Positions 5,290 to 42,406 of a stretch of DNA of 64,000 nt are shown here, piece by piece. Below the pieces are notes generated by a model. That model had not been told where the DNA came from. It did no database searches and was given only the letters and a program-made list of their open reading frames with translations. Position 1 is the first letter of the stretch; each line of letters opens with the position of its first letter. Origin of the DNA: a virus; the IMG/VR virus record IMGVR_UViG_2920962495_000002, positions 2,873-66,872 of that record; one strand, written 5' to 3'. Both the position numbers and the translations under genes were made by a program.

Positions 5290-5408
5290 GCTTTTATCTC
5301 CGTAGTAGTGGTCATAGACCGTTGGTTAATTCAGCATTGACAGCTAGTGATCGCTGCGTCGTCTGCGTTTTGCCTTGCGATGTGGTTGTTCTTAACCAGT
5401 AACGCTAT

Positions 5409-5459
5409 GTTCGCATATACGAACCAAACTGTCAAACACTTTTGTTCTAAAAAGCGAAC
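5409..5459 (-). promoter_or_regulatory. Left operator/promoter region (OL/PL-like)
   Basis: GTTCG-CATATA-CGAAC (5409-5424), GTTCT-AAAAAG-CGAAC (5444-5459), TTGACA on minus strand (5430-5435); the -10 is weak. Confidence 0.6.
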
Positions 5460-5522
5460 TATTTTCACATAGGCAATAAAAAACCCCGATATACGGGGCT
5501 TTGAGTGTTAAATTATTTTAGC

Positions 5523-6203
5523 TTATCTATAACGAGTATATTTACTATCTACAACGCCAACCAAGTTGCACTCGGTCATGGGCTGCATTTTTTGGTCAGG
5601 CCAATCAGGGTTAAGTGGTTTTAAGTACATATCATCATAACCATTGCCCATAACAAGCTGCTTAAACGTGGCTTCCGTATCGTCGTTACATTGCACAATG
5701 ACCAGATCGCCGTCTTTTAAATCCCAAGGTGTTATGTTTGGCTCAACGTAAACAATTTCGTCAGGCTTAAATTCAGGCCACATACTACGACCTCGAACCA
5801 CTAATCCAAACGCCATATCAGATAAATGCGCGGGCTTTGGAATCCAGTCTATAACATCATCTAACGTGGTCGGCATAACCTCCGCCCAGTTTCCCGCGGC
5901 TACCCAACTGATAACTGGCACCTCGCCATTCATAGCATGGTCAACATCGACACGCTCAGTGCCTAGTGGGGTTAATCGCTCGCTAGGCGCGTTATTCATG
6001 CTACCCACACCTGTTAGCAGCCAATCAGTATTGCAGCGCAAATATGCCGCTAATTTGCTCGCATACTCGCCTGATGGTTTGGTGCTGCCATTAACCCAAC
6101 TGCTAATAGTCGCCTTACCTGCGCCAGTCGCCCTCTTTATGTCAGCTTGGCTTACTTTTAGCTCCGACATTCTTTGATTGATTCTATCTGCTGCGCTATT
6201 CAT
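5523..6203 (-). CDS. cI: CI-like repressor (HTH plus S24 autopeptidase)
   Basis: N-terminal HTH, VPVISWVAAG cleavage site, VRGRSM.PEF Ser motif, ATFKQL Lys motif; start taken at ATG 6203 with GGAGG SD. Confidence 0.92.
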   Translation of the reverse strand: MNSAADRINQRMSELKVSQADIKRATGAGKATISSWVNGSTKPSGEYASKLAAYLRCNTDWLLTGVGSMNNAPSERLTPLGTERVDVDHAMNGEVPVISWVAAGNWAEVMPTTLDDVIDWIPKPAHLSDMAFGLVVRGRSMWPEFKPDEIVYVEPNITPWDLKDGDLVIVQCNDDTEATFKQLVMGNGYDDMYLKPLNPDWPDQKMQPMTECNLVGVVDSKYTRYR

Positions 6204-6220
6204 AAGTATTCCTCCTGTTT

Positions 6221-6293
6221 GTTCGCATATCAAAACATAAATGCTTGACATATTCTCGAACAATGTGTTCTAATATACGAACATTAAGCGAAC
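6221..6293 (+). promoter_or_regulatory. Right operator/promoter region (OR/PR-like)
   Basis: GTTCG-CATATC-AAAAC (6221-6236), TTGACA (6245-6250), GTTCT-AATATA-CGAAC (6267-6282), further CGAAC half-sites. Confidence 0.65.
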
Positions 6294-6305
6294 GGGAATA
6301 CGAAC

Positions 6306-6506
6306 ATGACTTTCGATGATTTATTAGATTACTTCGACGGTCAGAGCTATAGAGACATAAGTAAGCAACTTGGCGTCCCTATCGGGCAACTGACCTATTA
6401 CAAACAAAACGGAATCCCTGAAGGACGGCAAGCAATTATCGAACTTCAAACCAACGGCGATTTAAAGGCCGATATTCCAAAACTTATAAAGCTAGAGGAG
6501 GCCTAA
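6306..6506 (+). CDS. cro: Cro-like repressor
   Basis: 66-aa HTH protein divergent from cI; GIPEGRQAIIELQTNGDLKAD tail. Confidence 0.8.
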   Translation: MTFDDLLDYFDGQSYRDISKQLGVPIGQLTYYKQNGIPEGRQAIIELQTNGDLKADIPKLIKLEEA

Positions 6507-6508
6507 CC

Positions 6509-6709
6509 ATGTACGACAACCCACGACACATCAAAGACCACAGGGTCAATGCTCGCTTTAATGATGATGAAATTGAAGCGATAAACAGCGTAGCGAACCT
6601 AACCGGATTACAAAAAAGCACTTTAGTCCGTAAAGCCACGCTACGTCTGGTCGAAGAACTTAAAGCAGAGTTTGAACGAAATCTATCAGGCATGGAAGAC
6701 GCAGTTTAG
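6509..6709 (+). CDS. Small DNA-binding protein (RHH-like, cII position)
   Basis: HRVNARFNDDE...QKSTLVR ribbon-helix-helix-like pattern. Confidence 0.6.
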   Translation: MYDNPRHIKDHRVNARFNDDEIEAINSVANLTGLQKSTLVRKATLRLVEELKAEFERNLSGMEDAV

Positions 6710-30113: not shown

Positions 30114-30130
30114 GCGTTTAAAAGCTGTAT

Positions 30131-30170
30131 GGAACACCCCTAAACGAGCCGTTTGGCTAGGCATTACTAT
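30131..30170 (+). promoter_or_regulatory. Late promoter motif GGAACAC-N27-TACTAT
   Basis: Upstream of the capsid gene. Confidence 0.75.
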
Positions 30171-30237: not shown

Positions 30238-32055
30238 ATGCAAGAGAAACAAGCACGAGAGTTAAACGATGCCGCCCATAAAGAGGTGCAAGCCACGCGC
30301 GGTATCATGCACATCTTCACCAATAAAGCGAATGCGGGTCAAGAAGTCGCCGCGTTTGACTCTATGCTAGCTCAGAACGAACATTCTGATCGCAGCGTAG
30401 GTTTTAGCAAGCTACCTTCTTCTATGCAGCGTATGCTTAGCCATGCTGTTATCAAAGATCATCCTGAAGCGATTTTTGATGGTATCAGTGAAGGTATTAT
30501 TGAATATAAGCGCCGTAACGGTGGTGAAGAGCCGTCAGCTTATGTTGTGGCCGCCGCATTAGCAACTGCTGCTATGCCTTTTGGTGGTGCTGACCAGTAC
30601 GATTCAACCGTAGAACCTACTTTTGATAGCTTGTCACTAGGTCATCACGAAGCGTTATCAGTCGTGCCAGCCGCAACACAAGTGGTTATCACTTATGGTA
30701 TCGCTAACAGCTTGCCGCTAGTGTCTATGCTACCTAACCCTATGGGATCAAACGAGCTACCTATCGTATTCGGTACGGCGGTAGCTGGCATGAACATGGG
30801 CGTTATGCGTAAAGGCGACGCGATGGACGGTGACAAGGCGGGTATGCCTTACACTGAAAACCGTCATATCTTAACGATGGACAAAGGTGCTACTGGTGCG
30901 TTTAGCTTAACCTCGCATGTGGCCTACACTGCCAGCGTTAAAGCGGATAAGACTACCCAGTTTAAAGTTGATACCTCATCTACCAAAGCGCCATTCTTGG
31001 GTGGCCGTGTTTCGGTATTTGTAAAAGGTATTAAGATTGGTAGCGACGAAAGCCGTCGTCATCCAACAACTTCTGGTATCAGCACCCTTCAGCCGATTGA
31101 TGAGATTACTATTGGCTCCGATACTTATATCTTAACCAGCGCAACCGCTGATCTTGATACTCACGAAGTTAAAGTACAGTTCGATATCTCTGCTGGTGCT
31201 GAGCCTGCTGAAGACGACGTAACGGTTGAATTATTCTTTGACTATGAGCGTAAAGACGACAATGGCAATCAGATTTTACGTGAGCCATCAATCGACATGG
31301 AATTTGGTCATCGTTCAATCTACGCCTTCCCAAGCCGTTCGCGCTCAGTCGCTACTATCGATGCGATCACCCAGCTTATGAATGAGCTTGGTTTATCTTG
31401 GTTCGGTGCAGTACAAACTATCGCCATGCAGAAACAGTATTTTGAGCAGACGGGTCGCTTACTTCGTACCGCTATCAATATGTGTCTGTCTAACCAAGAC
31501 CCTGAAACTGGCCGTGTGGTGACGTTTGACTTCACCAAAGGCGGCGTATCACCGACTAATATCGCTGATGCTTTTGCCAACATTAACATCACTCTTGGTA
31601 TGGCGCGCACTCGCTTGTCAACGGCTATTAACTTAGCGGTCGGCGGTTATGACTTGTATGTCTCAGATCGCGGGCAAGCATTCTTCTCAGGCTTAAGTGG
31701 TGAGAACTACACATCAACAGGTCAGAGTGCAGGCGATCAAACCAGCATCTACCGTATCGGTACACTAAAAACCAGCGGTGCTAACGTCTATTATGTGCCT
31801 AAGTCTATGGGCGTATTTAACGAGACGGGTTCATCTACCACGGCTCATGCTTTACTGGTGCCACGCGCTATCAGTCCAGCACAAGCACCGTTTGTTGGTA
31901 TGGTTGCTGTACCGCCAATGGTTATGACTTCTAATGGTAACGCTTACGAGAAAGACGTGGCTATCTATAGCCGTACTGCTGCTGAAACGAACCCAATCCC
32001 TCGTTTTGCCAACCAGTTCATGCTTATTGAGATGATTAACTTGCCAGCGCTTTAA
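30238..32055 (+). CDS. Major capsid protein precursor (P1 gp23-like)
   Basis: 605 aa, strongly biased codon use, own late promoter; LPNPMGSNELPIV, FFDYERKD and ETNPIPRFANQF segments recall P1-type capsids. Confidence 0.7.
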   Translation: MQEKQARELNDAAHKEVQATRGIMHIFTNKANAGQEVAAFDSMLAQNEHSDRSVGFSKLPSSMQRMLSHAVIKDHPEAIFDGISEGIIEYKRRNGGEEPSAYVVAAALATAAMPFGGADQYDSTVEPTFDSLSLGHHEALSVVPAATQVVITYGIANSLPLVSMLPNPMGSNELPIVFGTAVAGMNMGVMRKGDAMDGDKAGMPYTENRHILTMDKGATGAFSLTSHVAYTASVKADKTTQFKVDTSSTKAPFLGGRVSVFVKGIKIGSDESRRHPTTSGISTLQPIDEITIGSDTYILTSATADLDTHEVKVQFDISAGAEPAEDDVTVELFFDYERKDDNGNQILREPSIDMEFGHRSIYAFPSRSRSVATIDAITQLMNELGLSWFGAVQTIAMQKQYFEQTGRLLRTAINMCLSNQDPETGRVVTFDFTKGGVSPTNIADAFANINITLGMARTRLSTAINLAVGGYDLYVSDRGQAFFSGLSGENYTSTGQSAGDQTSIYRIGTLKTSGANVYYVPKSMGVFNETGSSTTAHALLVPRAISPAQAPFVGMVAVPPMVMTSNGNAYEKDVAIYSRTAAETNPIPRFANQFMLIEMINLPAL

Positions 32056-32169: not shown

Positions 32170-33012
32170 ATGTCAGAAGCAAAGGCACTACCCAATAATA
32201 TTAAAGCGCTTGAAAAAAATCCTGAATTTAAAAAAGTGTACGACAACAACACTGTAGACAAGCTTGAAATGCAGCTTATAGAGGCCGACGTTGAGTTCTT
32301 GAGCGCAGACAATAAAGCCGCCCTAGTGTGGCGCTTACTTGACCATCAAGGCACGCTTGAGAGTGACAATGACACAGAAACTAAAGACGATACTAAAGAA
32401 GCTGTTAATGGCGCTCAGACTACTGATAGCAGCGCTGATGACGATGTTAGCGTTGACGCTGCTACTAGCGGTAACAGCGGTGGCGATAGCGATACTGGCG
32501 ACGCTGATGAATCAGTAACCTCAATCAACAAAGGCGATAGCAATGAAAATGCACAGACGGCTCAAGACGATACTAGCGATAAGCATAGCGCTCAGGTCGA
32601 TGGTAAAGCAAACACCGATGCCGGCTCCGATAGCGCAAGCACGGACGACAGCGAAAAGTCTGATGAAGTGGCTGACACTGCCGACAGTGATGCGCCGTCG
32701 AATACTGGTAACAGCAATGACATTAGCGCAGACGAAGCTAACCAGCCAGCAAAAACAGGCGATAAAGCAGCCGATAGTAGCTCAGTACCCACTGAAAAAG
32801 CGCCTACCAAAACGGCCGTAAGTGAGCTTGAATATGTGTCAGTCAAAAATAATGGCGGCTTTAATATGCTAGAGCCTGCTACTAGCACGCTGGTTAAGGC
32901 TGGCAAGATCACTAAGATTTACATCAAAGGCTATGCCACTAAAGATCAGGTATTGCGCAATATTGCTCAGTACAATCATACACGCGGCGAAAAATTGACC
33001 GTCACCAACTAA
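32170..33012 (+). CDS. Acidic low-complexity virion-associated protein with LEM/SAP-like N-terminus
   Basis: Short helical N-domain, long D/S/T-rich linker, compact C-domain; follows the capsid gene. Confidence 0.55.
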   Translation: MSEAKALPNNIKALEKNPEFKKVYDNNTVDKLEMQLIEADVEFLSADNKAALVWRLLDHQGTLESDNDTETKDDTKEAVNGAQTTDSSADDDVSVDAATSGNSGGDSDTGDADESVTSINKGDSNENAQTAQDDTSDKHSAQVDGKANTDAGSDSASTDDSEKSDEVADTADSDAPSNTGNSNDISADEANQPAKTGDKAADSSSVPTEKAPTKTAVSELEYVSVKNNGGFNMLEPATSTLVKAGKITKIYIKGYATKDQVLRNIAQYNHTRGEKLTVTN

Positions 33013-33085: not shown

Positions 33086-34279
33086 ATGATTGAGAGTAAT
33101 ATTTTAGGCGCAGCGGTTGGCATCCAAAACCAAGGCGTTATAGATAAAAGCGAGGGCACAGCATTGCCTTCTACCGTTAATGGCGTGATCGCTGGCAAGT
33201 TTAAGCGTGGACGCATGGACAAACCATTTAAAGTGACCGCCAGCAATTACAAAGCGCTGCTAGGCCATGACCCATCAAACCCCAGTTATTTAGCCGTTGA
33301 GGACGCGTTCAAGCGAGGTATTAGCGAGGTAAGTATCTTGCGTACTGGTGGCATAGGTGATGCGGCTATTAAATGCGTCGCAAACTTTGCAGAAATGTCG
33401 CTACCGTCGTTCGACCGCGAAGTAGTGCCCGATTATTTTGTGACAGTGAGTCGCAATGGCGGCGAATTTAAGACTTATAAATTGAATCCCTCCATGGAGG
33501 GCGCAGACTTTTTTGCAGAAAACTTTTTTAGCTCAGATGGTAATAAGGTTATATTTTTTGATTACCCGTACGGGGCGGAGCAGTTGCATGATTCCAACAA
33601 AGGAGCTATATGCGGCATTGATAGCGAGGGTATGATTTTAACGCCCGACCAAGGCGCTATTAACTTGATGGATTTAGAATTGCTTGTCGCCCATAGAAAA
33701 ATCACACCGCCTTACGTTCTAACCAAGCAGCATAACTGGCTAACCTTTAAGCCGACAGACGGCGTTAGCCCCGCAAACGATGTGTTTTTTAGCATGATAG
33801 GCGGTGATAGCGGCGCGTCCACGATAACCGTTCATAGTTGCGCGGTGATAGAAAAATATATCGACCCTAATGTCTGTATGCCTACCAGCGCAGAGATTTT
33901 ATATATGAACGGACAAAACGAGCCGACAGGCGACCTATACGGCCGATACCGCGTTGATGGCGGCGAATGGGTGGATTATACCGCGCCAGCAAACTACTAC
34001 CTTGTTAATGAGTTTTTGAGCCATACGGGCGTTATGCAACCCCAAGGCGGCGGCGGGATTAGTCCTTTTCAGTTTAACGTAAATACCCGTGGCGGCTATA
34101 TCAACGGCGCGTCCGCCCAAGAGCCGTATGTAGATGGCCAAGATGGCGTTTTAGAGATCAAGCGCACAACCGTTGATTTTGAGCTAACCGACGGCGGTGC
34201 AAATGACCTTGTGCAATTACTGTTTGGCGGTAACATGAGCGTAAGTTCGTGCGCCGTTGGAAGTTGGTACGGCGTTTAA
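33086..34279 (+). CDS. Tail-sheath-N-domain protein A with two Cys-bounded passenger domains
   Basis: First 88 aa 69/88 identical to ORF 34359; GKFKRGRMDKPFKVT...YLAVEDAF.RG...ILR resembles sheath N-termini. Confidence 0.6.
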   Translation: MIESNILGAAVGIQNQGVIDKSEGTALPSTVNGVIAGKFKRGRMDKPFKVTASNYKALLGHDPSNPSYLAVEDAFKRGISEVSILRTGGIGDAAIKCVANFAEMSLPSFDREVVPDYFVTVSRNGGEFKTYKLNPSMEGADFFAENFFSSDGNKVIFFDYPYGAEQLHDSNKGAICGIDSEGMILTPDQGAINLMDLELLVAHRKITPPYVLTKQHNWLTFKPTDGVSPANDVFFSMIGGDSGASTITVHSCAVIEKYIDPNVCMPTSAEILYMNGQNEPTGDLYGRYRVDGGEWVDYTAPANYYLVNEFLSHTGVMQPQGGGGISPFQFNVNTRGGYINGASAQEPYVDGQDGVLEIKRTTVDFELTDGGANDLVQLLFGGNMSVSSCAVGSWYGV

Positions 34280-34285
34280 CCAGCT

Positions 34286-34325
34286 GGAACACCGCTAAAA
34301 CCACAAACCAAACCAAGCCTATACT
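34286..34325 (+). promoter_or_regulatory. Late promoter motif GGAACAC-N27-TATACT
   Basis: Upstream of sheath-N protein B; 13-bp inverted repeat over the -10 and SD. Confidence 0.8.
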
Positions 34326-34358
34326 GAGTCATAAACCACTCAGTATAGGCATTTTGTT

Positions 34359-34742
34359 ATGATCGAGAGCAAAACATTAGGTAGCGCCGCTGGTATCCAG
34401 TATCAAGGCGTGATTGACAACTCAGAGGGCACCAGCTTGCCGTCATTGGCCAATGGCGTGATTATCGGTAGCTTTAAGCGCGGTCGCATGGACAAGCCTT
34501 TTAAAGTCACGTCTAGCAACTATCAAGCGCTGTTAGGCCGAGATCCAACCAACCCAAACTACTTGGCGGTTGAAGACGCTTTCAAACGTGGCGTTAGTCA
34601 AATTAGCATCTTGCGTACTGGTAATAGTGGCGGTGGATCATCCGCGCCAGTTGAGCCAGTGGCTGACTTAAGCTACGTCAAGATTACTAAAGTGGACAAT
34701 CCGGTATTTGCGGGCGAATACTCAATCATAGAGGAGTTGTAA
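34359..34742 (+). CDS. Tail-sheath-N-domain protein B (short)
   Basis: Paralogue of the 33086 N-terminus plus a 39-aa tail. Confidence 0.6.
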   Translation: MIESKTLGSAAGIQYQGVIDNSEGTSLPSLANGVIIGSFKRGRMDKPFKVTSSNYQALLGRDPTNPNYLAVEDAFKRGVSQISILRTGNSGGGSSAPVEPVADLSYVKITKVDNPVFAGEYSIIEEL

Positions 34743-34744
34743 TA

Positions 34745-35446
34745 ATGGACGAAGTAAAAGCATGTTTAAAAGTCAAGGTGAATAACAACCCTAGCGTGAT
34801 AGAAACTGTTTTTGATGCTGAACCACGGATACCATCGAACATAAGCATGGATCAGTCAGTAGTAGCTTCCCTTCTAAGTGGTTATTTCTCAGAAATAAAC
34901 CCTTGGGGTGATTTCATAGCAAACCAAGGGTTTATTAGGATGGATGAAGATGGCGAAACCAGCACTAAAAATCTACTAGGTCGATACGATCAGGTTTTTA
35001 CATCAGGTGGTTACGCCTACCCATCAGAAATCGGCTATGTTGGCTTTAATGATCTTTTATTAAAAACAGCCTTGAAAAATGACCTTATAGGTGCGGGGCC
35101 ATTATCAGGATGGAGTGCGTGGGAAGAGTTAGTTGATATATCATCTATGGATAGTTTGCAGGATATTTTAGATGCAAATATAAACGCAGGTAACGTTACA
35201 TACACTATCTACGCTGAACCAAGTACGCTTACTATCGAACGATGCACCGAAGAAGATATTATAAACTCTTCTATGGGCCAGCCATGGAATATTGATGCTT
35301 TTGATTTGGTGAAAGACATGCTGGTAGGTCATCTTGATGATAGAGATAAAGAAGGTTACGCGCCCGCTAGCTATGATCCCGTTGCGGACGTTATTACTAT
35401 CAAGTCTAACTACCGACTGGAAAGAAAAGAAAAGTTCCTAACGTAA
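34745..35446 (+). CDS. AT-rich hypothetical protein, possible detached passenger of protein B
   Basis: Starts 2 nt after the stop of 34359..34742. Confidence 0.55.
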   Translation: MDEVKACLKVKVNNNPSVIETVFDAEPRIPSNISMDQSVVASLLSGYFSEINPWGDFIANQGFIRMDEDGETSTKNLLGRYDQVFTSGGYAYPSEIGYVGFNDLLLKTALKNDLIGAGPLSGWSAWEELVDISSMDSLQDILDANINAGNVTYTIYAEPSTLTIERCTEEDIINSSMGQPWNIDAFDLVKDMLVGHLDDRDKEGYAPASYDPVADVITIKSNYRLERKEKFLT

Positions 35447-35465
35447 TCAGCGCGCCATTAACTAT

Positions 35466-35505
35466 GGAACACCCCTAAAACGCTAAAGTAAATCCTGCCT
35501 ATACT
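35466..35505 (+). promoter_or_regulatory. Late promoter motif GGAACAC-N27-TATACT
   Basis: Upstream of the sheath gene; paralogous to the 34286 leader. Confidence 0.8.
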
Positions 35506-35538
35506 GATGTGATACCAACACAGTATAGGCATTTTATT

Positions 35539-36915
35539 ATGAGCGCTCAGACCCTTTATTTAAGTATTCTAGCGTCTTCTATGACGCTGACGGAATCACC
35601 TGATCCCGCAGCGCTGGCAAGCGTAGAGTTTGTCACGGAATACGCTTTTGATTCAAACGTTGTGGCAAAAGTCATGGCGGTTGATCAAAAAACCCTTACT
35701 ACCGCCGCTGATCCCTTGGACAACCTTGTTTTTAAGATCAGCTTTAATGACAAGATCGACGGCAGTACGATAACGGAATTAAAAGGCCGTTTATACACTG
35801 GCGGCGGCGTTGAAGCACTAGAAGAACAGCACGCCGATAATTTTGGTTATATCACAAGCAAGCTAGACTTTTACGGCGCATTGGATAGCCAGTACGACTT
35901 TTTCGAGTCCGTCACGACCAGTTATAGCGCAAGCAAGGCGGCAGCGATCAAAACAGCGCTTGAAACCATGGGCGCATTAAACGAGCTTGGCGCTTATCGC
36001 ACCAAACAAGTTGAGTTGGCCGTACCAGCCAGCACCGTAACCGACCTGACACCAACAGAGCTTAAAAATTCGTTGTTAGACATGCGCGATCGTCCACGCT
36101 ACCTAGTCACTTGTGACGTGGCCAGCCTACCTCATATTGAAGCGCTGGCCGAGGTGATGGGTAAAATCAACTGTCATGTATTGCTCGATATCGGCAATAT
36201 CACCGACTGGCAATCAGCCGTAGCGTTAACTGAAACACTAAGCATTAATGACCATCGTTTTTGGGTATTTTGGAACCCTAACAAGTCACGCCCAAGCAAT
36301 GCGACAACCGTGCTGGCGCGTAAAAAATGGCGTCCATGCGTTGGTGATCTACTAGCCCAAACGCTACTACGTAATGCTCGCACCAACAGCTCAGGCATAC
36401 CGCCTATCAATAGACCGGTTGCTGGTTACGACTTCCCTGTGGCATTTCGTGACATGGAAAAAATGGCAGGCGTATCGCTTGATGAAGAGGCGCAAAACGC
36501 ACTTGCCAGCGCTGGCGTGAACGTGGTTATCAATGAACGCTTTGAAGGTGGTGATCGTTGGATCTATGGTGACGCGCTCACTCAGTACGATAGTAAAAAT
36601 AGCGCCTTACGTTTAACCAATAGCGCCGAGATTGAGACTTATACGACCAATCTTGTGCTATCTATCGTCAAAAAACACTTACTAAAAGGCATGACCAGCT
36701 TTGTGCGTGATGCTCAGGACGAATGTAGCCGTGCCCTTGATGCGTGCGTGGCAGCAGGATTACTGGTTCAGCCGTCTGAGCTTGGCGGTCTGTATTATCT
36801 ATTGCAAATCACGCCACGCGCTGATGACCCGTTTAGTAAAGCAGATATTAAGTTTAGCCGCCGTCCTGAAGGATGCGCCCGTCAAGTATTCTTTGAAGGC
36901 ACTGTTACTAAGTAG
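35539..36915 (+). CDS. Contractile tail sheath protein (P1 gp22-like)
   Basis: C-terminal ALASAGVNVV...IYGDALT...LRLTNSAEI...ALDACVAAGLL sheath pattern. Confidence 0.7.
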   Translation: MSAQTLYLSILASSMTLTESPDPAALASVEFVTEYAFDSNVVAKVMAVDQKTLTTAADPLDNLVFKISFNDKIDGSTITELKGRLYTGGGVEALEEQHADNFGYITSKLDFYGALDSQYDFFESVTTSYSASKAAAIKTALETMGALNELGAYRTKQVELAVPASTVTDLTPTELKNSLLDMRDRPRYLVTCDVASLPHIEALAEVMGKINCHVLLDIGNITDWQSAVALTETLSINDHRFWVFWNPNKSRPSNATTVLARKKWRPCVGDLLAQTLLRNARTNSSGIPPINRPVAGYDFPVAFRDMEKMAGVSLDEEAQNALASAGVNVVINERFEGGDRWIYGDALTQYDSKNSALRLTNSAEIETYTTNLVLSIVKKHLLKGMTSFVRDAQDECSRALDACVAAGLLVQPSELGGLYYLLQITPRADDPFSKADIKFSRRPEGCARQVFFEGTVTK

Positions 36916-37000: not shown

Positions 37001-37915
37001 ATGTCACGCGATTTTATTACCCAGCGCCGCCTTAACCGTCAACACGACCAAGCGCAAGCACAATTTGACGCACTAACCCCGCAAGAAGCCGCCGATAAGA
37101 TGGAGCTTGACCCTATCTCTGAACGCATGGCGATTACCGCGACCAGCCAGATGCGCCTTGCTGCTTTAAATGTCGCCTTTATGCTATCCGCTGTACTAAC
37201 GGATGGTGAGTATGACGATGAAGAGCTGCTACCTAGTGAAGTGCTAGACGGCCTTATGATCGAAGCATTTACCGATGATGACGATGATGATAGCGACATG
37301 GACGAGATTGACGAAAACGTCCGTATCACCTTCTCAGCTCACGTATCAGATGCGTTATCAACGCTAGGCGTTGAAGATGCGGTTATCGCTGATCTATTCG
37401 ATGACGAGATTGAAGTGGCTGATGCCGCTTGCTTGGCTGCCGCTGAAACGGTGCTTGAGAACATGCCAGATGACGGTGAAGCGTTTGATGAATTTGTCGC
37501 AGGCTTTGCTTATAGCGACGACGAAGGCGATGATGAAGACGAAGAAAGCTTTGATAGCATGAATGAGGAATACCAGTTTGATGCCGCTAAGAAAAAATTG
37601 CGTGCTGGCAAGAAAACGGTCAAAAAGGTCAATGGCAAGACGCTTATCTATAAAGCCGTTAAAGCCATTCGTAATGGTGAAAAAGTTACGATCAATAAAC
37701 GTATTAGCGGTAAAGTTAAACTGAACGCAGGACAACGCGCAGGACTTAAAAAAGCACGTCGTAAGGCTGGCACGGCTTCAGCCATTCGTAAGCAGATGCG
37801 CTCGTTTGGTAAGGGTATGCGAGCCAATATTTATAAAGGCAACCCAAACCGCCTAAAGGCACTTAAAAATGCAGGTTATGCGCGTAGCACGAAGGCTAAT
37901 TTTGGTAAGAACTAA
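37001..37915 (+). CDS. Prohead core/scaffold-like protein
   Basis: Highly acidic N-terminal two-thirds, strongly basic C-terminus (LKKARRKAGT...RSFGKG); three FD[SA] motifs. Confidence 0.6.
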   Translation: MSRDFITQRRLNRQHDQAQAQFDALTPQEAADKMELDPISERMAITATSQMRLAALNVAFMLSAVLTDGEYDDEELLPSEVLDGLMIEAFTDDDDDDSDMDEIDENVRITFSAHVSDALSTLGVEDAVIADLFDDEIEVADAACLAAAETVLENMPDDGEAFDEFVAGFAYSDDEGDDEDEESFDSMNEEYQFDAAKKKLRAGKKTVKKVNGKTLIYKAVKAIRNGEKVTINKRISGKVKLNAGQRAGLKKARRKAGTASAIRKQMRSFGKGMRANIYKGNPNRLKALKNAGYARSTKANFGKN

Positions 37916-41700: not shown

Positions 41701-41706
41701 ACCTAT

Positions 41707-41746
41707 GGAACACCCCTAAACCCGCCCGCCCAAAGCACGTCAAAAT
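41707..41746 (+). promoter_or_regulatory. Late promoter motif GGAACAC-N27-CAAAAT
   Basis: Upstream of the tube gene. Confidence 0.7.
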
Positions 41747-41779: not shown

Positions 41780-42406
41780 ATGAAAACCAAAACTCCTAGC
41801 GCTCAGGCGTACCGCAAACAGTACGAAACCGCAAAATCACTAGGCGCGGCTATGCTGGCGTGTAACGCCGTTTTAGTGCCAGAGGGCTACAACAACCTAT
41901 ACTTGCTTACTCAAAACTTTCAGCGTCCTATCGTCAGTCACAATGATAGCGCTGATGTTGACTATGCGCGCGGTCTACAAGCACACGTAGCAGGTACGGT
42001 TAAAACCAACTTTGAAGGTCAGTGGACGCTAATTGAAACAGAGTCCGGCGCGATCTCAAAGTTTGCAGAAGACATCGCGGTTAAACATGGCGGTATTTTG
42101 CCACTCGTTCGCATCTATGACGGTTTTGTCGGTGACGGCGATAACATCAAAGGCAGCCGTGAGTATGAACTGATTGATTGTGCAATCACCTTTACCGATG
42201 GCGGCGGTGAAATCGATGCGGCCAGCCGTAGTCAAATCTTACAAGTGCAAGCGTCATGCCGTTATAACTATTTTGGCCAAAGCGGTAAGATTGGCGCAAC
42301 CGGTAGCGGCGCGGATGTATTCGCTGACACCTTGACCAATGCGCTCGGCAGCCTTAGCAGTTTAGTACCGCAGGGTGGTTTAGACGGCGTGACTATCTTC
42401 GGTTAA
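41780..42406 (+). CDS. Tail tube protein (P1 Tub-like)
   Basis: 208 aa, own late promoter; GLQAHVAGTVKTNFEGQWTLIETESG recalls P1-type tube proteins. Confidence 0.6.
   Translation: MKTKTPSAQAYRKQYETAKSLGAAMLACNAVLVPEGYNNLYLLTQNFQRPIVSHNDSADVDYARGLQAHVAGTVKTNFEGQWTLIETESGAISKFAEDIAVKHGGILPLVRIYDGFVGDGDNIKGSREYELIDCAITFTDGGGEIDAASRSQILQVQASCRYNYFGQSGKIGATGSGADVFADTLTNALGSLSSLVPQGGLDGVTIFG

Follow-up and report, generated by a model that had tools for sequence, protein, structure and literature searches.

Can the sheath of a contractile phage tail be assembled from two polypeptides, and can one of them double as a carrier for other domains? Phage sheaths are textbook one-chain proteins, and two-chain sheaths are regarded as a type VI secretion system (T6SS) peculiarity that is tied to recycling. 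The question is raised by a 64,000-nt stretch of viral DNA (IMG/VR record IMGVR_UViG_2920962495_000002, positions 2,873 to 66,872; hereafter the window), which comes from contig C220 of a Psychrobacter draft genome and holds the late genes of a P1-like prophage or phage-plasmid. Four consecutive genes on the + strand are concerned: open reading frame (ORF) A (33086..34279; 397 amino acids, aa), ORF B (34359..34742; 127 aa), its companion ORF C (34745..35446) and the gene of the large sheath subunit, SheC (35539..36915; 458 aa). Our results point to a two-polypeptide sheath protomer whose small chain, encoded by B and by its paralogue A, serves as the carrier of variable passenger domains, a reading that we consider probable.

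Division of the sheath between two genes

ORFs A and B begin with a closely similar module, 69 of their first 88 residues being identical (BLASTP: 75/116 identities, E 1e-49), and these are the only two copies of the module in this genome. In A the module occupies 33086..33349 on the + strand (residues 1-88); in B the same residues are followed by a 39-aa tail. The "tail sheath" profile PHROG 1036, which has 531 positions, is divided between these proteins: A matches positions 7-91 (E 7e-7), B matches positions 6-89 (E 9e-10) and SheC matches positions 105-531 (E 3.4e-63), with nothing earlier in the profile. The elements of the sheath are therefore not found on a single polypeptide here, and ORF C and the intergenic leaders separate the genes. 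A preliminary description of this DNA, made from the sequence alone, had claimed that the two ORFs share an 88-aa N-terminus, that this N-terminus resembles that of contractile sheath proteins and that the main sheath gene lacks it. All three claims hold, the second through PHROG 1036 positions 6-91 and residues 8-88 of the P1 sheath protein gp22, and the third through a profile match that begins at position 105; the module is also lacking in more than 100 related clusters.

Natural fused relatives show 45-52% identity to the module over their residues 3-87. The module profile aligns with gp22 residues 8-88 in hhalign (E 2.6e-5) and with residues 8-66 in hmmsearch (E 0.039), while the hhalign match of the SheC profile to gp22 is weak (probability 21%) and collinear with gp22 residues 275-521. 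Together, these comparisons support the homology of the 88-aa module to the N-terminus of one-chain sheaths. The two copies differ at saturation in their synonymous positions (proportion of synonymous differences, pS, 0.78) and much less in their nonsynonymous ones (pN 0.14) and are, therefore, old and under purifying selection.

General family models contribute little to this assignment. A, B and SheC have no Pfam or NCBIfam match, TssB and TssC included, beyond a sub-threshold match of residues 35-78 to Pfam PF22671 Gp18_domIII_N (A 16.5 bits, B 17.9 bits; gathering threshold 27), whose position and orientation are consistent and which is taken as a lead only. Searching PDB sequences with B and SheC by phmmer gave no match, and the SheC profile retrieved only chance matches there. 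As a side observation, no Pfam model matches the P1 gp22-type lineage (gp22 itself, L029:5418-7007 on the - strand; the one-chain relative P0253; SheC), no NCBIfam model matches the window proteins or P0253, and PHROG 1036 alone recognises the lineage, which accounts for the "hypothetical protein" annotations.

Position of the break

Where the chain is interrupted can be located with relatives in which it is continuous. In the one-chain relative P0253 (546 aa), residues 3-87 match B at 45% identity and residues 130-546 match SheC residues 28-458 at 37% identity; another relative, L006, has a single 657-aa sheath in the same gene neighbourhood. The sheath fold was tested on P0253, and not on the window's own chains, by an AlphaFold2 (AF2) model built from an alignment (A9) to which split sheaths contribute only from about residue 100 onward. 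The model is of good overall quality (pLDDT 85.4, pTM 0.83). Residues 30-92 are confident (86-95), and two segments are disordered, namely residues 1-29, which form the arm, and residues 93-102, the linker at the break point. The P1 sheath is its best match (Foldseek E 4.5e-19). Superposed on PDB 9AY3, it gives a VIA Z of 25.5 and a root-mean-square deviation of 5.3 Å over 459 residues, with residues 27-535 aligned to gp22 31-518, and the identity to gp22 in structural alignment is very low, at about 12-14%.

In gp22, the N-terminal residues 3-34 are the handshake arm, domain II is formed by residues 35-99 plus 243-425, the outer domain III by 100-242, domain I by 426-516 and the C-terminus by 517-528 (PMC10304247). 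These limits, together with the division of the profile, place the break at the boundary between domains II and III. On the model, the small piece comprises the handshake arm and the first domain II segment, and the break falls in a predicted disordered linker leading toward the outer domain. SheC is without the N-terminal arm and the first segment of domain II; it retains its own outer domain, and over 35539..36915 (+ strand) it encodes a domain III-like region, the second domain II segment, domain I and the C-terminal arm. The earlier idea that a sheath N-domain is supplied in trans is thus supported, but the limit of what is supplied has to be redrawn: the break lies at the domain II/III boundary, in the topology of TssB/TssC.

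Conservation and co-occurrence of the two pieces

The divided form is widespread. Among SheC homologue clusters, 113 of 121 (430-500 aa) are without the module, and it is present in all eight clusters of at least 544 aa. More than 100 clusters of 456-462 aa have the same N-terminus as SheC, and this N-less form is kept down to about 33% identity. All 11 loci with enough flanking sequence, from Psychrobacter, Moraxella, Faucicola and Acinetobacter, have at least one module gene beside an N-less sheath gene, and in the five further genomes or plasmids where no module gene lies nearby, one was found elsewhere (5/5). Its position varies: in the Acinetobacter phage ABMM1 and in the locus L010 it is downstream of SheC. 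With positions as varied as these, the division cannot be due to a frameshift, an intron or an intein. On the 77-kb phage-plasmid of A. defluvii (NZ_CP029389.2; 54449-55858 against 5299-6588), a distance of about 27 kb separates the large-subunit gene from two small-subunit genes (251 and 357 aa as open frames), so linkage of the two chains is not required. From these observations, the split is an old, maintained state rather than damage.

Most related loci have short versions of the small subunit, of 92-130 aa, and bare small subunits of 92-95 aa occur in ABMM1, L010, L016 and L017. How many passenger genes there are, and of which type, varies among close relatives: small-subunit genes encode 349, 415 and 114 aa in L005, 117 and 303 aa in L009, and 397 and 127 aa in the window. 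Searches of phage genomes gave no match to the region by megablast, and by tblastn the sole matches were ABMM1 and Xanthomonas Rb1. In the tree of the conserved C-terminal core, deep branches were unsupported and the outgroup branch was very long; therefore, this tree does not settle whether the split or the fused form is ancestral, and it is compatible with a single split origin.

Passenger domains

Beyond the module, A carries a passenger part (33350..34279, + strand) made of two Cys-bracketed modules of about 125-155 aa, C97...C252 and C265...C389, which resemble each other weakly, as an internal repeat (17/48 identities, E 0.002). The two domains beginning near a Cys had been described beforehand, and this analysis bears them out. 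The cysteines are paired, which suggests that a disulfide clamp links the first strand to the last. A module of the type C-[TIS]-P ... [SA]-C-A, about 125-170 aa long, is recurrent (in the window at 33374-34252, A residues 97-389); in single or double form it also follows the anchor in P0004, P0016, P0021, P0022, P0026, P0028 and P0132. The A passenger belongs to no Pfam or NCBIfam family, and its single-sequence AF2 model was unusable (pLDDT 32.6). Look-alikes from the language-model search (Atlas) are weak leads, with scores of 0.82-0.87, toward sheath beta-sandwich domains. We also considered the A passenger and C as copies of domain III; neither is similar to the outer region of SheC, so they are no obvious copies of it. 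Between the A passenger and C themselves there is no relationship.

The short protein B has to be viewed together with ORF C. The C ATG stands 2 nt past the stop codon of B, with a GAGGAG Shine-Dalgarno sequence within the end of B, and C is predicted from this arrangement to be translationally coupled to B. Residues 1-121 of B are collinear with residues 1-128 of the protein P0010, and residues 1-226 of C are collinear with P0010 residues 131-345, where they are fused to the module. The pairing of a short small-subunit gene with a C-like ORF behind it is found again in L005, L009 and L015, with a weak instance in L018. Since the two are fused in relatives (Rosetta-stone logic), C probably associates with B, and the B subunit may thus not be bare in this phage. 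The layout first described, a short tail followed 2 nt later by an AT-rich ORF, is right, but there is more to B than a short tail, B plus C being equivalent to one fused passenger protein of relatives. We discarded a programmed frameshift as the link between B and C: there is no slippery site, a canonical GAGGAG precedes the ATG, and the gap in L005 is 49 nt. The GC content of ORF C is 0.40, against 0.48-0.49 for its neighbours. Searches of Pfam, PHROG and Atlas placed C in no known family; with Atlas it retrieved nothing.

Among 1.8 billion representative proteins searched, at least 293 clusters contain the module, with lengths of 69-1106 aa, and in nearly every listed cluster it lies at the very N-terminus (residues 1-90). 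Among the best 150 of these 293 clusters, 29 are module-only and 121 have passengers, which fall into 52 similarity groups and usually follow linkers rich in Gly/Ser/Asp or in Pro; the sheath core is also present in just two of these 150. The recognisable passengers in the family are of the immunoglobulin (Ig) type, PKD, BspA-type leucine-rich repeats (LRR)/DUF285, BiPBP_C and ConA-like lectin. These binding-fold domains were found in other members of the family and none was found in A or C. The survey supports the view, already put forward in the preliminary description as a modular anchor with exchangeable domains, that the module acts as an N-terminal anchor for very diverse C-terminal domains on flexible linkers. 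Probably, the hundreds of "hypothetical" proteins with this module at their N-terminus are sheath small subunits.

Shared leaders of the two sheath chains

The genes of both chains are preceded by related leaders. A 15-nt late-promoter-like motif (TGGAACACCgCTAAA; 34285..34299, + strand) is located 74 nt upstream of the B ATG, and an exact copy (35465..35479, + strand) is located 74 nt from the SheC ATG. In the whole window, TGGAACACCCCTAAA has four copies on the + strand, upstream of the capsid, B, SheC and tube genes, those of the capsid gene (30130-30144) and the tube gene (41706-41720) being 108 and 74 nt from the respective starts. Related Psychrobacter and Moraxella loci have the motif at the corresponding place, upstream of their capsid, SheC and tube genes, and it is kept upstream of SheC in L005, L009, L011, L012 and L015-L018. 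It is likely a late promoter with a two-part layout as in P1 and a different sequence: the P1 late promoter LP23 (AAGTGACTT, a 4-nt spacer and TAAAAT) has a similar layout and no sequence similarity to the motif.

From motif to ATG, the B and SheC leaders are both 74 nt long and 55 of these positions are identical, so the paralogy attributed to them at the outset stands; both contain strong hairpins. The B hairpin (34317..34350, + strand; 13-bp stem, -21.7 kcal/mol, z -7.05) ends 8 nt before the ATG, and there is no canonical Shine-Dalgarno sequence outside the stem. The SheC hairpin (35497..35530, + strand) has a folding energy of -22.9 kcal/mol (z -5.8). Arms of the form CCTATA...TATAGG are found upstream of SheC in all relatives examined (L005, L009, L011 and L015-L018 among them), and the conserved hairpin is followed by a T-run and then the ATG, without a free Shine-Dalgarno sequence. 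This hairpin could serve to stabilise the 5' end, to terminate the upstream operon, to bind a protein as a palindrome or to control translation. A SheC-type leader is likewise found before one or more small-subunit genes of each of L005, L009 and L015, and the shared leader fits a co-regulation of both sheath chains.

Proposed assembly and alternative explanations

In the assembly that we propose, the small subunit (B, or its paralogue A) would contribute the handshake beta-sheet arm and the first strands and helices of domain II, and from SheC would come domain III on the outside, what remains of domain II, domain I facing the tube and the C-terminal arm. A small and a large chain would dock one to one to give a gp22-like protomer, which would then polymerise around the tube. 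Because the end of the small chain corresponds to the point at which a one-chain sheath passes from domain II to the surface, C-terminal fusions on its flexible linker would point outward. The duplicated small-subunit gene would exploit this outward end, with two Cys-bracketed modules in A, and with a tail and the coupled C in B. A tail of the P1 type comprises about 300 protomers, arranged in P1 as 53 rings of 6. The tail would thus be a mosaic of differently decorated protomers, in ratios set by expression. A more far-reaching version, to which we give somewhat less than even chances, is that the sheath is a programmable multivalent display scaffold, in which interchangeable small subunits would allow a tunable mix of binding modules on the tail. 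It is comparably tentative that attachment to this scaffold would be covalent in A and non-covalent in B plus C.

The observations concern homology, the position of the break, conservation, the joint occurrence of the two pieces and the diversity of the passengers. From these we infer the presence of A, B and C in virions and their binding to SheC, as well as heterodimer formation, its stoichiometry, outward display and an adhesive or host-range role of the passengers, and this step is the first of several points that weigh against the proposed protomer. The sequence links to solved sheaths are weak when taken alone (E 0.039 and 2.6e-5; probability 21%), and the structural argument relies on the fused relative P0253, which is 37-45% identical to the window's proteins. 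For the passengers of A and C, which have no recognised fold, a role in display or adhesion is an extrapolation from other family members. In addition, in L009 it is the 303-aa passenger form that has the leader and the 117-aa form that does not; therefore, the leader is no reliable marker of the short form or of the major small subunit.

The best-surviving alternative accepts a two-chain sheath and questions the display: the passengers might be enzymes, anti-defence factors or assembly aids, or might be removed before assembly or after it. In its favour, the A and C passengers match no family and the look-alikes of A are weak leads (0.82-0.87). Nevertheless, we consider it unlikely, given that Ig, PKD, LRR and lectin domains, the recognisable passengers of the family, are folds classically used for extracellular binding, that flexible linkers follow the anchor, and that the attachment point corresponds to the start of the outer domain III in P1 (PMC10304247).

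Slightly less probable again is that SheC alone forms the sheath body and that the module proteins are accessory and not stoichiometric subunits, being confined to special positions (the first or last ring, the collar) or acting as assembly chaperones or polymerisation regulators. At the sheath ends, handshake strands can indeed be donated by non-sheath proteins, such as the P1 terminator gp24 (PMC10304247), and with several paralogues carrying bulky passengers, there might not be room for all of them on every protomer. However, the module consists of the arm plus an integral part of domain II that is confidently packed in the fused model, so that SheC alone would miss core strands. Moreover, every split-sheath genome or locus that could be judged keeps a module gene, and B shares with SheC a leader that is used for the most abundant virion genes. 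Finally, that the sheath gene is simply broken in a decaying prophage, by a frameshift, a nonsense mutation or an assembly error that left A and B as fragments, is very improbable even for a draft genome of 419 contigs, considering the more than 100 clusters that keep the N-less 456-462-aa form down to about 33% identity, the whole genes, promoter-like motifs and hairpins that lie between the pieces, the module genes downstream of SheC (ABMM1, L010) or 27 kb away (A. defluvii plasmid), the purifying selection on both module copies and the viability of ABMM1.

Comparison with known systems

The two-chain protomer proposed here belongs to the lineage of P1 gp22 (PDB 8JAN, 8JAJ, 9AY3), with which it shares PHROG 1036 and the fold (Z 25.5 for the fused-relative model), and the gene order is alike, P1 having capsid gene 23, sheath gene 22 and gene 21. 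The domain plan is also alike, with an N-terminal arm, a two-segment domain II, an outer domain III, a domain I and a C-terminal arm. In contrast, gp22 is one 529-aa chain, and here the chain is broken, its N-terminal piece being a separate gene in two copies with extra C-terminal domains.

The same two-chain topology, broken after the first middle-domain strands, is found in TssB/TssC of the T6SS. TssB (VipA) contributes the handshake strand as well as two of the strands in the middle-domain sheet, with its C-terminus outward, and TssC (VipB) contributes the rest, including the C-terminal strand (PMC5807055). Unlike TssB/TssC, the proteins of the window belong to a virion tail, without a ClpV-recycling context and without sequence membership of the TssB or TssC families. 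Furthermore, the small chain is here multiplied and fused to variable domains, a feature with no counterpart in the T6SS.

A further case is the Acinetobacter phage vB_AbaM_ABMM1 (OQ471969), in which Gp12 and Gp14, of 431 and 92 aa, are both annotated as "tail sheath protein". This phage is a viable, plaque-forming myovirus, whose relaxed and contracted tails have been seen by transmission electron microscopy. It has the same split as the window, but its small subunit is single and bare, is encoded downstream of the large one and has no passenger-bearing paralogues. The available text of the ABMM1 paper names both proteins as sheath and does not discuss the split.

Other particles share parts of this arrangement. 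The sheath paralogues of the antifeeding prophage (AFP; Afp2-4) and of the Photorhabdus virulence cassettes (PVC; Pvc2-4) are complete sheath proteins, and T4 Hoc is a capsid-bound accessory protein. AFP and PVC are similar in having several sheath-family genes per tail, but these are not complementary fragments as here, and Hoc is similar in placing Ig-like domains on the virion surface, but it is not an integral half of a structural protomer. The multi-protein AFP/PVC sheaths were noted in the P1 structure paper (PMC10304247). A 2022 survey of sheath evolution does not contain the word "split" and names two-protein sheaths for the T6SS only, and in the literature searched we found no description of a split phage sheath. 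What the window itself adds is the collinearity of B plus C with a fused protein, and the motif and hairpin leader shared by B and SheC.

A phage lineage of Psychrobacter, Moraxella, Faucicola and Acinetobacter thus indicates that the sheath fold tolerates the split and stably keeps it outside the T6SS, and it offers a natural system in which to ask why sheaths split. If the proposed protomer is correct, the T6SS-like chain break either arose independently or marks a shared evolutionary route. An anchor of 88 residues that would join dozens of unrelated domains to a contractile tail bears on the biology of phage host range, and it is relevant to the engineering of tails, tailocins and extracellular contractile injection system (eCIS) particles as display platforms. 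If the sheath is such a display scaffold, cassette swaps among relatives would alter adsorption or environmental adherence and leave the contractile core untouched.

Genomic setting

The surroundings are those of a phage morphogenesis module, with capsid, baseplate, tube and portal genes, and not those of a T6SS (Hcp, VgrG, ClpV, membrane complex). The gene order is capsid, acidic protein, A, B, C, SheC, gp21-like, Hdf/DarA_N-like, baseplate, tube and portal. The major capsid protein gene (phrog_1014) starts at 30238, the gp21-like gene (phrog_1053) at 37001 and the tail tube gene at 41780. The protein between the capsid gene and A (32170-33012; 280 aa) is very acidic and of low complexity, rich in Asp, Ser and Thr, with conservation confined to its C-terminal ~70 aa (phrog_5216/5312). 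This conserved end matches a 100-aa protein that intervenes between capsid and sheath in the fused-sheath relative L006, and the acidic protein may be a decoration of the head or neck, or a scaffold-like protein.

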